The translations under genes were made by a program, and so were the position numbers. The notes beneath the pieces are model-generated. The model saw only the letters and a list, made by a program, of their open reading frames with translations, did not search any database and was not told where the DNA came from. Below are positions 5,681 to 15,384 of a stretch of DNA of 17,858 nt, one piece after another. The stretch lies in IMG/VR virus record IMGVR_UViG_2778261693_000003. The stretch is one strand, 5' to 3'. Every line of letters starts with the position of its first letter. Position 1 is the first letter of the stretch. Origin of the DNA: a virus (Duplodnaviria > Heunggongvirae > Uroviricota > Caudoviricetes).

Positions 5681-5695
5681 TTACAATTCAATCAG

Positions 5696-6859
5696 TTACG
5701 CCTTCTTTATATCCTCCATAATTCCAGAGTGGGACATATTTGGGACATTATCACCAAAAATGTCGTCTATTTTCCTCGCATGCTCTGTCAAATGATTAGG
5801 CGCAAGGTGAGCATACCTACGAACCATTTCTATGGACTCCCATCCGCCCATTTCCTGAAGCACTGATAATGGGACGCCTGACTGAATCAGCCAGCTTGCC
5901 CAGGTGTGTCTGAGGTCATGGAAACGGAAATCTTCAATTCCTGCACGACGACAAGCTGATAGCCATGATGTCTTGCTGTCGATGCGCATCTTCCTGACCG
6001 CAGGCGTTGATGTTCCATCTGCTCGCTTAGCCGCCTTGGTATGTACAAACACCCATTTGTGATGCTTGCCTATTTGATCACGCAACACTTTACAGGCGGT
6101 ATCGTTCAGCGCCACACCAATGGCGCGGTTTGATTTGCTCTCTTCTGGATTCACCCAGGCAACTCGTCGCTGCATGTCGATTTGTTGCCATTCCAGATTT
6201 ATGATGTTCGACTTTCTCAGACCAGTTGCCAGCGCAAACTTGACGACAGATTTCAGTGGTTCGGGGCACTCATCAATAAGGCGTTTTGCTTCCTCCTTTT
6301 CCAGCCATCTGACTCGCTTGTTTCTGACCGCTGGTATCTTGATGACAGGCGCTTTTTCCAGCCACTTCCAGTCGCGTTCTGCAGCACGGAGAATAGCCTT
6401 TATCATGGCAAGATGCTTTGCCTTTGTCTGAGTTGATACTGGCTTTGGTTCATAAACAGGCAGTTCTTTACCTTTCCTGATGGCGGCCTGAACTTTCTGT
6501 TTCCATATTTCTTTCGTCTTTCTGTTATGCATTCTGCTTACAGCAGAGTAAATCTTTGCCTCCGAGATATCTTTAAGCCTTATACCCTCAAAATGTTCAA
6601 GCCAGAACTCAATCCGGCTTTTATCTGAATCGAGAGATTTTTTATCAGCTTTTTCCTCAAGCCATCTTAGGCAGGCCTCTTCAAAAGTGACATCAGGTAA
6701 ATCCCCTAGCTTTTCTACTCGCCAGAGTTCTGCTTTTCGCTTGTCGTGCAACTCCTGAGCTTGCCGCTTGTCCTTTGTGCCAAGAGATTCCTTAATTCGT
6801 TTCCCGCCCGGGAGCGAATACGAGGCATACCATATTTCATTTCTGCGGAAGAGTGACAT
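5696..6859 (-). CDS. intD: Prophage tyrosine integrase (DLP12 IntD-like), 387 aa
   Basis: Begins 16 bp from the tRNA 3' end on the opposite strand. C-terminal catalytic motifs of tyrosine recombinases ([10 protein letters not shown]...VRRYAHL). Classic tRNA-integrase junction. Confidence 0.92.
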
Positions 6860-7086
6860 TTTCTTTCCTCTGTTATGCCATCACCCGCGCTCACCTGGAC
6901 AGTATGCAGCGGAGACTGAAGCGCCGCAATGCAGGCTTGCCGTGTTGTGAGGTAAGGAGATTTTGGCTTGGTTGGATCTTTACGTGTTGCCTGTAGGCGG
7001 CCTGTTCGTATCCAGTTGGTGGCGGTTGGTCTGGATATCTTAAGAAACTGACAGGCCTCATCGAGTGTGAGGCTGTATGATTCCAT
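6715..7086 (-). CDS. xis: Putative excisionase / AlpA-like DNA-binding protein
   Basis: ATG at 7086 is preceded by GAGG. N-terminal HTH-like segment ([27 protein letters not shown]). Lies immediately upstream of int; the ORF overlaps the int start by about 145 nt, so the functional C-terminal end is uncertain. Confidence 0.55.
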
Positions 7087-7336
7087 GGTTACCTCTGCTT
7101 TTTGAACGCATGTCACGTAACTTCTTAATGTGTTCTGCCGTTTCGATCTCTTCTGCTATCCGATCTGCATCAGCTTTATTCACAGGTTCAAAGTCATGAT
7201 TAAAGCGGAACATGCTGGCGATACATGTTCTGCCTTTTCGGATGTAGTGAACTTTGTTGTGGGTAGAACGCAGGATTTTGCAGGGAGTGCCGTGGTGGTC
7301 GACGTACCAGGTGTTAGGGTAAATCACTCTGAACAT
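7058..7336 (-). CDS. Hypothetical prophage accessory protein, 92 aa
   Basis: ORF with an AAGG motif 7 nt upstream of the ATG, overlapping its neighbours in a leftward-transcribed operon. No family recognised. Confidence 0.5.
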   Translation of the reverse strand: MFRVIYPNTWYVDHHGTPCKILRSTHNKVHYIRKGRTCIASMFRFNHDFEPVNKADADRIAEEIETAEHIKKLRDMRSKSRGNHGIIQPHTR

Positions 7337-7646
7337 TCTTGACCTTGTGTTGTGCGGATTGATATTCAGTGCTGATATTCACCTTTATAGCGAACACCTT
7401 TACCGGTTTATCGCCAAAGTGTGGATGTGTGATTGTCTTCACTTCATATCCGTCATACGGAACATCAATTCTGCGACTGGAATCGTCGCGCTTCGGATAT
7501 CCCTTTGTGATAATCAGGCGGTCATACTCCCGGAACATAATTCGCTTATTCCAATAGTCATTACACAGGCGATACTCCTCCGTTTTCTCTCCGCGAATCA
7601 TGGCATCGAAAAATTCACTTTTAACAGGAAGTTGCAGGTTAGCCAT
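7314..7646 (-). CDS. ASCH/DUF3850-like domain protein, about 110 aa
   Basis: The motif LPVKSEFFDAMIRGEKTEEYR...REYDRLIITKGY resembles ASCH-type beta-barrel domains. The ATG at 7646 overlaps the stop of the upstream zinc-finger ORF (TGATG); a GTG start at 7649 is an alternative. Confidence 0.6.
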   Translation of the reverse strand: MANLQLPVKSEFFDAMIRGEKTEEYRLCNDYWNKRIMFREYDRLIITKGYPKRDDSSRRIDVPYDGYEVKTITHPHFGDKPVKVFAIKVNISTEYQSAQHKVKNVQSDLP

Positions 7647-13371: not shown

Positions 13372-13457
13372 CAGGTTCAGAAATGGCGAAAGTCGGTCTG
13401 CGGGAACAGAACCGACTTTCAGGTGCAAATCGTAACACACTCATTGCGGGAGGAATT

Positions 13458-14387
13458 ATGGCAAACACTGCTGAGATATTCAATTTTCCAGTGCCGGATG
13501 CGGCACAAAAGGAGCCGCGCGTGGCAGATCTCGATGATGGTTATACGCGCATTGCAAATGAGTTGCTGGAAGCTGTGATGCTGGCCGGATTAACACAGCA
13601 CCAGCTTCTGGTCTTCCTGGCTGTCATGCGCAAAACATATGGCTTTAATAAAAGACTGGATTGGGTGAGCAACGAGCAACTTTCCGAATTGACCGGGATA
13701 TTGCCGCACAAGTGTTCTGCTGCAAAAAGCGTTCTGGTAAAGCGTGGGATTCTTATTCAGAGCGGGCGAAATATCGGCATTAATAATGTGGTCAGTGAAT
13801 GGTCAACATTACCCGAATCAGGTAAGAAAAATAAAGTTTACCTGAAAGAGGTAAATTTACCTGAATCAGGTAAGAAAAGTTTACCCAAATCAGGTAAAGG
13901 CGTTTACCCGAATCAGGTAAACACAAAAGACAAACTAACAAAAGACAATATAAAACCTTTTTCGTCCGAGAATTCTGGCGAATCCTCTGACCAGCCAGAA
14001 AACGACCTTCCTGTGGTGAAACCGGATGCTGCAATTCAGAGTGGCAGCAAGTGGGGGACAGCAGAAGACCTGACCGCCGCAGAGTGGATGTTTGACATGG
14101 TGAAGACCATCGCGCCATCAGCCAGAAAACCGAATTTTGCAGGGTGGGCTAACGATATCCGCCTGATGCGTGAACGTGACGGACGTAACCACCGCGACAT
14201 GTGCGTGCTGTTCCGCTGGGCATGCCAGGACAACTTCTGGTCCGGTAACGTGCTGAGTCCGGCCAAACTCCGCGACAAGTGGACCCAGCTCGAAATCAAC
14301 CGAAACAAGCAACAGGCTGGCGTGACAGCCGGCAAACCAAAACTCGACCTGACGAACACTGACTGGATTTACGGGGTGGATTTATGA
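13458..14387 (+). CDS. O: Replication initiator O: N-terminal iteron-binding domain of non-lambda specificity, C-terminal domain lambda-type
   Basis: GGGAGG precedes the ATG at 13458; N-terminus MANTAEIFNFPV...VADLDDGYTRIANELLEAV aligns with lambda O. The C-terminal about 110 aa match my memory of lambda O. The ORF frame stays open upstream to an ATG at 13368. Confidence 0.88.
   Translation: MANTAEIFNFPVPDAAQKEPRVADLDDGYTRIANELLEAVMLAGLTQHQLLVFLAVMRKTYGFNKRLDWVSNEQLSELTGILPHKCSAAKSVLVKRGILIQSGRNIGINNVVSEWSTLPESGKKNKVYLKEVNLPESGKKSLPKSGKGVYPNQVNTKDKLTKDNIKPFSSENSGESSDQPENDLPVVKPDAAIQSGSKWGTAEDLTAAEWMFDMVKTIAPSARKPNFAGWANDIRLMRERDGRNHRDMCVLFRWACQDNFWSGNVLSPAKLRDKWTQLEINRNKQQAGVTAGKPKLDLTNTDWIYGVDL
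13807..13965. repeat. Replication origin inside O: four to five 23-bp-spaced palindromic iterons plus an A-rich tract
   Basis: Iteron cores TACCCGAATCAGGTAA (13810), TACCTGAATCAGGTAA (13859), TACCCAAATCAGGTAA (13882), TACCCGAATCAGGTAA (13905) and a degenerate copy near 13836, followed by the A-rich 13921-13965. Confidence 0.8.
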
Positions 14388-15085
14388 AAAACATCGCCGC
14401 ACAGATGGTTAACTTTGACCGTGAGCAGATGCGCCGGATCGCCAACAATATGCCGGAACAGTACGACGAAAAGCCGCAGGTACAGCAGGTAGCGCAGATC
14501 ATCAACGGTGTGTTCAGCCAGTTACTGGCAACTTTCCCGGCGAGCCTGGCTAACCGTGACCAGAATGAACTGAACGAAATCCGCCGCCAGTGGGTTCTGG
14601 CTTTCCGGGAAAACGGGATCACCACAATGGAACAGGTTAACGCTGGAATGCGCGTAGCCCGTCGGCAGAATCGACCATTCCTGCCATCACCCGGGCAGTT
14701 TGTCGCCTGGTGCCGGGAAGAAGCATCTGTTAACGCCGGGCTGCCAAACGTCAGCGAGCTGGTTGATATGGTTTACGAGTATTGCCGGAAGCGTGGCCTG
14801 TATCCGGATGCAGAGTCTTATCCGTGGAAATCGAACGCGCATTACTGGTTGGTTACCAACTTGTACCAGAACATGCGGGCCAATGCGCTGGCTGACGCGG
14901 AATTACGGCGCAAGGCTGCCGATGAACTGACCTGTATGACAGCGCGAATTAACCGTGGTGAGACGATACCTGAACCAGTAAAACAACTTCCTGTTATGGG
15001 CGGTAGACCTCTAAATCGTGCACAGGCTCTGGCGAAGATCGCAGAAATTAAAGCTAAGTTCGGACTGAAAGGAGCAAGTGTATGA
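14384..15085 (+). CDS. P: Replication protein P (DnaB helicase loader), 233 aa
   Basis: Translation MKNIAAQMVNFDREQMRRIANNMPEQYDEKPQVQQVAQIINGVFSQLLATF... matches lambda P along its length. ATGA overlap with the O stop. Confidence 0.92.
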   Translation: MKNIAAQMVNFDREQMRRIANNMPEQYDEKPQVQQVAQIINGVFSQLLATFPASLANRDQNELNEIRRQWVLAFRENGITTMEQVNAGMRVARRQNRPFLPSPGQFVAWCREEASVNAGLPNVSELVDMVYEYCRKRGLYPDAESYPWKSNAHYWLVTNLYQNMRANALADAELRRKAADELTCMTARINRGETIPEPVKQLPVMGGRPLNRAQALAKIAEIKAKFGLKGASV

Positions 15086-15384
15086 CGGGCAAAGAGGCAA
15101 TTATTCATTACCTGGGGACGCATAAGAGCTTCTGTGCACAGGACGTTGCCGCGGTAACAGGCGCAACCGTAACCAGCATAAATCAGGCTGCGGCTAAAAT
15201 GGCGCGGGCAGGAATCCTGGTCGTTGATGGTAAGGTCTGGCGAACGGTGTATTACCGGTTCGCTACCAGAGAAGAACGGGAAGGAAAGGTGAGCACGAAT
15301 CTGATTTTTAAGGAGTGTCGCCAGAGTGCCGCGATGAAACGGGTATTGAGGGTATATAAAAGAACATCAATGGGAACACAATGA
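15082..15384 (+). CDS. ren: Ren protein, 100 aa
   Basis: Translation MTGKEAIIHYLGTHKSFCAQDVAAVTGATVTSINQAAAKMARAGILVVDGKVWRTVYYRFATREEREGK resembles lambda/DLP12 Ren. ATGA overlap with the P stop. Confidence 0.85.
   Translation: MTGKEAIIHYLGTHKSFCAQDVAAVTGATVTSINQAAAKMARAGILVVDGKVWRTVYYRFATREEREGKVSTNLIFKECRQSAAMKRVLRVYKRTSMGTQ

Follow-up and report, generated by a model that had tools for sequence, protein, structure and literature searches.

Escherichia coli K-12 keeps only part of the early region of its argU prophage DLP12, which raises the question of what that region looks like where it has not been deleted, and whether it could still serve a phage. We address this question with IMG/VR virus record IMGVR_UViG_2778261693_000003, a stretch of 17,858 nucleotides that we refer to in its whole length as the window. 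A preliminary description of its sequence had placed a DLP12-like prophage at argU and had read int, xis, exo, bet, gam, cI, cro, O, P and ren, within 5681-15384, as full-length open reading frames (ORFs); it went on to suggest that, unlike K-12, this copy may retain recombination (Red) and replication functions and be inducible. A whole-locus alignment against K-12 DLP12 (NC_000913) and phage lambda bears out the assignment: the genes are uninterrupted, and the locus is colinear with K-12 at 97-100% identity wherever K-12 has sequence. We conclude that the window very likely carries the leftmost 12 kb, attL included, of a temperate lambdoid prophage inserted at the 3' end of argU, an undeleted form of the DLP12 lineage.

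The argU locus and K-12 DLP12

The window is E. coli chromosome, running in the order IS1 end (inserted in sfmC), sfmD, sfmH, sfmF, fimZ, argU and then prophage to its end. The features that fix the boundaries, including two insertion sequence (IS) ends, are as follows.

1..212, unstranded: IS1 end within the sfmC chaperone gene; 99.1% match to an IS1B copy in the Combat11I9 stretch (L004)
5604..5680, plus strand: argU, tRNA-Arg(UCU), the integration target; ARAGORN, and Rfam tRNA at 72 bits
5633..5682, unstranded: attL core, 50 bp, at the argU 3' end; recurs at attR of relatives
17733..17858, plus strand: ISKpn26 end (IS5 family), 167 bp 3' of ybcK; 100% match to annotated ISKpn26 copies

The tRNA is the sole hit of an Rfam scan of the whole window. 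The prophage begins directly 3' of argU, and the span 5681-15384 proves exact: its start adjoins argU and its end is the stop codon of ren. The attL core is also the attR core of relatives: it is matched at 98% at the far prophage end in K-12 (28055-28104 of stretch L002, the right DLP12 end), in Combat11I9 (41186-41235 of L004, 3' of ompT) and in phage PhiR26_1 (48154-48203, the end of the record).

Alignment with K-12 resolves into four blocks.

213-6954: 99.3% identity to K-12
8575-8880: 97.1% identity
14774-15172: 100% identity
15171-17732: 99.8% identity

Together they cover every segment that K-12 has kept (xisD', exoD', peaD', renD, emrE, ylcJ and ybcK). K-12 corresponds to the window without 6955-8574 (about 1.62 kb) and 8881-14773 (about 5.89 kb) but with IS3C added in ren, with overlaps of 2 bp at the deletion junctions, and the comparison shows which 7.5 kb K-12 DLP12 lost. 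What remains in K-12 is int, 3' portions of xis and P, 306 bp of exo/orf60a, ren::IS3C, emrE, ylcJ and ybcK; the K-12 pseudogenes xisD, exoD and peaD are exact stumps of the two deletions. The preliminary description had given this content essentially correctly (int, fragments of xis, exo and P, and ren-emrE-ybcK), but without the IS3C that splits ren. DLP12 of K-12 very likely arose from such a prophage via two deletions and the IS3 insertion in ren. The two share the argU site, the att core, the integrase (99.3% at the DNA level), the segment order and emrE-ylcJ-ybcK (99.8%); K-12 has lost all of bet, gam, kil, the immunity region and O, most of both exo and P, the 5' portion of xis and six small genes, and its ren is interrupted by IS3C, whereas ren in the window is whole.

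The undeleted form is common. Among 5426 complete E. coli genomes, 611 carry the 9.7-kb region at a single site over 80% or more of its length, and 321 carry the K-12 double-deletion junctions; the full-length form outnumbers the deletion form, and the textbook DLP12 structure is the minority of the two. Four independent complete genomes contain the 9.7 kb at 100.0% identity, on which ground we reject a chimera or assembly artefact, and many others contain it at 98-99.7%. DLP12 has been described as the most prevalent prophage locus in 638 Escherichia and Shigella genomes, found in 74% of strains (PMC6379469). The early region itself is already known: it has been sequenced many times, full-length argU phages are deposited as isolates, and a viable form is known.

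Similarity to K-12 and other genomes begins at 213, and all long genome matches end at 213 and 17732. The junction between ybcK and ISKpn26 is found in 0 of the 5426 complete genomes, and neither IS junction occurs together with this prophage in any complete E. coli genome of the collection. Since the window starts and stops within IS elements, we take it to be probably a whole draft contig bounded by repeats. Late genes and attR lie beyond view, since the window begins in IS1 and ends in ISKpn26 just after ybcK; the ISKpn26 insertion site is intergenic, between ybcK and ybcL, inside the cargo block.

Genes and regulatory elements of the early region

Families were assigned with PHROGs, Pfam and NCBIfam, with full-length matches. 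We find 19 uninterrupted genes between 5696 and 15384, filling about 89% of 5681-15384; the ten genes named at the outset are each a single uninterrupted ORF. Exo, Bet, Gam and P are as long as their lambda counterparts, and all 18 proteins shared with PhiR26_1 agree with that phage in length. Outside the immunity region, the genes and the origin are as follows.

5696..6859, minus strand: int, tyrosine integrase (IntD, P22 type), 387 aa; PHROG integrase, 1e-114; 100% identical to PhiR26_1 Int
6715..7086, minus strand: xis, P22-type excisionase, 123 aa; PHROG 2907, profile 2-117 of 117; HTH_17
7058..7336, minus strand: DUF4222 gene, 92 aa; Pfam DUF4222
7314..7649, minus strand: orf111; PHROG 625; absent from PhiR26_1
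7646..7867, minus strand: TraR/DksA-type zinc-finger gene, 73 aa; PHROG 54
7966..8181, minus strand: lambda orf61-like gene; PHROG 303; at the start of the lambda-like block 7656-10450
8258..8449, minus strand: lambda orf63 homologue (DUF1382); 93.7% amino-acid identity to lambda
8422..8604, minus strand: lambda orf60a homologue (DUF1317); 96.7% amino-acid identity to lambda
8601..9281, minus strand: exo (Red alpha), 226 aa; 220/226 identical to lambda Exo (97.3%)
9278..10063, minus strand: bet (Red beta), 261 aa; 260/261 identical to lambda Bet (99.6%); NCBIfam bet_lambda equivalog, above cut-off
10069..10365, minus strand: gam, 98 aa; 96/98 identical to the 98-aa form of lambda Gam (98.0%); PHROG 259, full length
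10441..10731, minus strand: kil, cell-division inhibitor, Kil family; PHROG 294, 2e-38; PGAP name
13368..14387, plus strand: O replication initiator, 339 aa; PHROG 277, 3e-163; Phage_rep_O
13809..13952, unstranded: predicted origin (ori) inside O, five iterons TTACCYGAATCAGGTAA (13809-13925), then an A+T-rich stretch; repeat families D1 and D4
14384..15085, plus strand: P helicase loader, 233 aa; 227/233 identical to lambda P (97.4%)
15082..15384, plus strand: ren, 100 aa, intact; PHROG 142; K-12 IS3C insertion at about 15172
15452..15784, plus strand: emrE (SMR efflux pump), cargo; PHROG 1395, full length; 99.8% DNA identity to K-12
15832..15981, plus strand: ylcJ; PGAP and K-12 annotation
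16039..17565, plus strand: ybcK, large serine recombinase, cargo; PHROG 95

The Red proteins match those of lambda at 97-99.6% and in length, and the lambda arrangement of iterons within O, followed by P, is likewise present, here with five iterons and an A+T-rich stretch; both support the retention of recombination and replication functions first proposed. Six substitutions separate Exo from its lambda counterpart (T90A, R166Q, N168D, I189V, D200N and I202M), and, judged from the lambda Exo structure, the catalytic residues are presumably untouched by them. O is a hybrid, with an N-terminal half that is its own allele and a lambda-like C-terminal part (93.9% DNA identity from 13921 on). The kil start is uncertain, at 10647 (PGAP, 68 aa) or 10731 (96 aa).

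Int carries the HxxR and catalytic Tyr motifs, and its assignment as IntD follows from the 99.3% block shared with K-12 and from the label intD that PGAP gives to an identical protein. The neighbouring xis shares 145 nt with int, an overlap that P22 also has; the Xis product is 76% identical to P22 Xis over residues 1-122 (99% of the length) and 100% identical to that of ev243 and PhiR68_2. In strain 980-2, whose early region is identical, PGAP calls xis only as a 22-codon "incomplete" helix-turn-helix (HTH) pseudogene (7526-7591 of stretch L001). From these matches xis is a full-length P22-type excisionase gene, and the annotation as a pseudogene fragment is wrong and should be corrected. This miss by PGAP looks systematic for the P22-type excisionase family. 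The small gene orf111 encodes a GxKxxExR-like motif (IRGEKTEEYR) that recalls ASCH domains, with no Pfam hit.

The immunity region and its candidate control elements lie between kil and O.

10869..10920, minus strand: perfect 11-bp-stem hairpin at the 5' end of the putative pL transcript; inverted repeat I23
10916..11010, minus strand: predicted OL/pL, operator repeats containing GTTGTTTT; repeats D1, D5 and I15-I16
11101..11120, minus strand: predicted intrinsic terminator 3' of the lipoprotein gene; 7-bp stem with 6 G-C pairs, then TTTTCTTTT
11128..11508, minus strand: lipoprotein gene between cI and OL, 126 aa; PHROG 3135; Pfam BamE at 21.8 bits, below cut-off
11738..12427, minus strand: cI repressor, 229 aa, non-lambda immunity; Pfam HTH_3 and Peptidase_S24
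12428..12531, unstranded: predicted OR with divergent pRM/pR; palindrome ATGGTTGTT-N7-AACAACCAT (12469-12493)
12532..12762, plus strand: cro (YdaS type), 76 aa; Pfam YdaS_toxin at 61.5 bits; PHROG 35
12775..12787, plus strand: boxA-like CGCTCTTTAACAA 3' of cro; a single match, within chance on its own
12832..13371, plus strand: cII analogue, YdaT family, 179 aa; Pfam YdaT_toxin at 104.5 bits; PHROG 163, CII-like activator

The layout is of lambda type, with an S24 repressor divergent from cro and related predicted operators at pL and pR. The cI protein is 100% identical to that of PhiR26_1 and 26% identical to lambda cI. Since it combines an HTH, the S24 domain, an Ala98-Gly99 site and a GDSM serine motif at residue 140, SOS induction would be the expected trigger; these self-cleavage motifs agree with the inducibility suggested earlier. 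OL and OR share a 19-nt element, with 10927-10945 being 95% complementary to 12483-12501, and each copy overlaps a TTGAC-type -35 hexamer, from which we infer pL (minus strand, about 10953-10925) and pR; the pL hexamers would be -35 TTGACG (10953-10948) and -10 TTAAAT (10930-10925). YdaT is a functional equivalent of CII (PMC9986795), and a search of the window for the published YdaT operator, TTGATT-N6-AATCAA, gave no meaningful match. The lipoprotein gene fills the slot that rexAB occupies in lambda. HipA/HipD, GevT/GevA or others stand there in related phages, and because its content differs among them the slot is a hotspot for cargo or defence genes; when the cargo genes, this lipoprotein gene among them, were scanned with PADLOC, there were zero hits.

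By these assignments, the cI, cro and N-terminal O sequences are of a different immunity and origin specificity and are not lambda alleles. The early region as a whole reads as a mosaic of modules: P22-type Int/Xis, lambda-like Red, Kil, its own immunity, O/P/ren and the emrE-ylcJ-ybcK cargo.

Neither an N-like ORF between pL and kil (ORF list for 10400-11130; PHROG and Pfam scans) nor a cIII ORF (same list) was found, nor was a boxB hairpin in the boxA search and RNA folding of the region 3' of cro, and comparison of the HK022 put region with the pL leader and the pR-distal region gave only short matches at chance level. The window holds no lambda-type N with nutL and nutR and no lambda-type pairing of cII with cIII, the cII slot being filled by the YdaT-family protein (29% identity to lambda CII). 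PhiR26_1 and phage 4A7 have the same arrangement without N, so we regard this as a property of the group, not a defect. Because this widespread group lacks N, boxB and cIII despite lambda-like Red and O/P, its members might express delayed-early genes by an undescribed N-independent route, a proposal that we consider improbable. Such a route could use the conserved pL 5'-terminal hairpin (10869-10920) together with the boxA-like element after cro, or a very short, arginine-rich peptide from upstream of kil, where the in-frame sequence does code for an arginine-rich stretch (region 10732-10920). The 96-nt pL leader has a minimum free energy of -26.3 kcal/mol; among 51 distinct leaders from IMG/VR, the 3' arm of the hairpin is near-invariant, the 5' arm is different in one immunity type, and zero compensatory changes give no covariation support.

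Likelihood of function and alternative explanations

The closest phage isolate is PhiR26_1 (PV340555, 48.2 kb, host listed as MG1655). PhiR phages are reportedly temperate lambda relatives of the Brenes and Laub 2025 panel. In a paper that cites that study, they serve as plaque-forming lambda relatives (PMC13190303); their status as viable phages is taken from this use and from the GenBank record. PhiR26_1 matches the window over 5679-7340 at 99.6% and over 7642-15348 at 97.9%, covering 96% of 5681-15384 at 98.4% identity, with the immunity block at 99.5%. The 18 early proteins common to both have equal lengths and 86-100% identity: no residue differs in seven of them (Int, Xis, Bet, Gam, Kil, cI and Cro), and identity is 99.4% for the CII analogue and 91% for Ren. 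Regulatory DNA is equally close, with one substitution in OR (12520, adjoining the cro ribosome-binding site and outside the operator palindrome), two in OL/pL and two in ori, both between iterons. Like the window, PhiR26_1 carries int, xis, Red, kil, the lipoprotein gene, cI, cro, the cII analogue, O, P and ren, but it lacks orf111 (window 7341-7641) and, 3' of ren, has PD-lambda-1, Rha and others in place of emrE-ylcJ-ybcK-ybcL-ybcM. Its record begins with int and ends with ompT and the repeated 50-bp att core, as argU prophages do. PhiR34_1, PhiR68_2 and PhiR30_1 are related to it.

Gene integrity, the identity of the modules, colinearity with K-12 and near-identity to phages described as viable are directly observed, and from them we judge that the repressor cleavage, excision, replication and Red functions are very probably intact; promoter positions, inducibility and the activity of each protein are predictions. 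By analogy with lambda, cI bound to OL and OR would hold pL and pR off in a lysogen, and RecA-stimulated self-cleavage at Ala98-Gly99 would derepress both. Transcription from pL would then cover kil, gam, bet and exo and run on to xis and int, leading to Red recombination and attL/attR excision, and transcription from pR would cover cro, the cII analogue, O, P and ren, leading to theta replication from the iterons in O. As the Red genes sit behind a repressed pL, a carrier would be Red-proficient only upon cI inactivation.

What lies beyond ybcK can be seen in the two closest complete genomes, PK8241 (99.9% over 213-17732) and Combat11I9. In both, ybcL and the genes up to quuD lead on to a porin gene, lysis genes and a full lambda-type set for terminase, head, tail and fibre; then come appY, ompT and attR, for a total of about 48 kb. 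The outer-membrane protease gene ompT lies inside the prophage, before attR, in PhiR26_1 (46781-47734 of stretch L005), Combat11I9 (39812-40765 of L004) and PK8241 (26393-27346 of L089), and appY is also within the prophage bounds in the latter two; because PhiR26_1 carries ompT in this position, the gene travels on a viable phage. In 980-2, which is identical over 5681-15384, a 10-kb island (34187-44302 of L001, equivalent to NZ_CP127324 729186-739301) interrupts the major capsid gene. This island brings major capsid and decoration proteins of its own, along with a small terminase, an integrase, AlpA, SSB and a primase-like protein, and looks like a capsid-forming satellite (cf-PICI-like) inside the capsid gene of a potential helper.

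These relatives bear on the alternative that the early region is whole but the prophage of the source strain is defective, so that it might derepress, excise and replicate and yet yield no infectious particles, its late region having been interrupted, deleted or separated by ISKpn26 or other lesions. The ISKpn26 end 167 bp after ybcK, at a junction absent from all the complete genomes, the split capsid gene of 980-2, and the decay of the lineage that K-12 proves to occur all speak for it. An IS at a contig end is, however, the usual break of a short-read assembly and implies no deletion; this one is intergenic within cargo, the late regions of PK8241 and Combat11I9 are complete, and the early region is common to viable phages, and we hold a defective source prophage to be unlikely, though a real possibility. 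Decay could also be so recent that it has left the ORFs open, with missense or regulatory changes already inactivating key functions of a grounded prophage: reading frames are no proof of function, and there are substitutions relative to PhiR26_1 in OL/pL, OR and ori, with Ren at just 91%. That seven proteins and, nearly, the CII analogue are unchanged from viable PhiR26_1, that the OR and ori changes spare the operator palindrome and the iterons, and that the sequence, at 100.0% in four genomes and 98-99.7% in many, is conserved and circulating make this very improbable.

A further alternative concerns descent, namely that an unrelated lambdoid phage shares the argU integrase and other modules through mosaic exchange, or was rebuilt from a resident DLP12 remnant. 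Lambdoid genomes are mosaic, the Red and P modules also occur with other integrases (4A7, with an icd-type int, and lambda), and the unequal identities of K-12 exoD (97.1%), int (99.3%) and peaD (100%) hint at differing segment histories. We nevertheless find this origin improbable, given that all K-12-kept segments from argU to ybcK lie in the same order and orientation at 97-100%, that K-12 is derivable through two deletions and one IS insertion, and that relatives carry on with the K-12 genes ybcL through ompT.

Several observations temper our preferred reading, that of an undeleted DLP12-lineage prophage with a working early region. Activity of the early genes in this copy is predicted from its sequence, and the hexamers assigned to pL and pR are weak matches that a consensus scan misses. 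With N, cIII and boxB not found, the lambda delayed-early model is not transferable as it stands. The interrupted capsid gene of 980-2 means that an intact early region is no guarantee of a viable phage; and with late genes, cos and attR outside a window that ends in ISKpn26, the source prophage may be rearranged or truncated.

If the reading holds, a carrier strain has a repressed, lambda-grade copy of Red, together with emrE, on a probably mobile element, which bears on recombineering background and on gene flow. The practical value is small and current understanding is unchanged: the undeleted form is common in E. coli genomes and already known in viable phages.

Comparison with lambda, P22 and 4A7

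Phage lambda and the window share the order int-xis ... exo-bet-gam-kil ... cI / cro-cII-O-P-ren, iterons inside O, and an S24-type repressor between two operator-promoter regions. At the DNA level the likeness is confined to two blocks, 7656-10450 (96.7% identity, from upstream of orf61 to the kil start) and 13921-15357 (93.9%, the C-terminal part of O, P and ren). The window differs from lambda in its Int and Xis (27% and 34% identity), a pair of P22 type; in its cI, Cro and cII-slot proteins, which belong to other families (24-29% identity); and in its five iterons, unlike lambda's in sequence, which point to a separate origin specificity. The lambda genes N, cIII, ea10, ral, sieB and rexAB are not in the window.

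With P22 the window shares the integration module, as seen in the full-length identity of Xis (76%), an Int of 387 aa and the same xis/int overlap; its target is argU instead of the P22 attachment site, and the remaining phage is lambda-like. Phage 4A7 (Bievrevirus bv4A7, NC_049946) agrees with the window at 95-96% in the stretch between TraR and kil and in that between the cII analogue and ybcK, the second of them at 96.4%, and it has no annotated N; its integrase and excisionase differ, with an icd fragment annotated beside them, its cI matches only in part, at 87% identity, its cro region has no DNA match, and its rex-slot genes are others. Because this viable phage carries emrE-ylcJ-ybcK, that cargo is compatible with phage viability.

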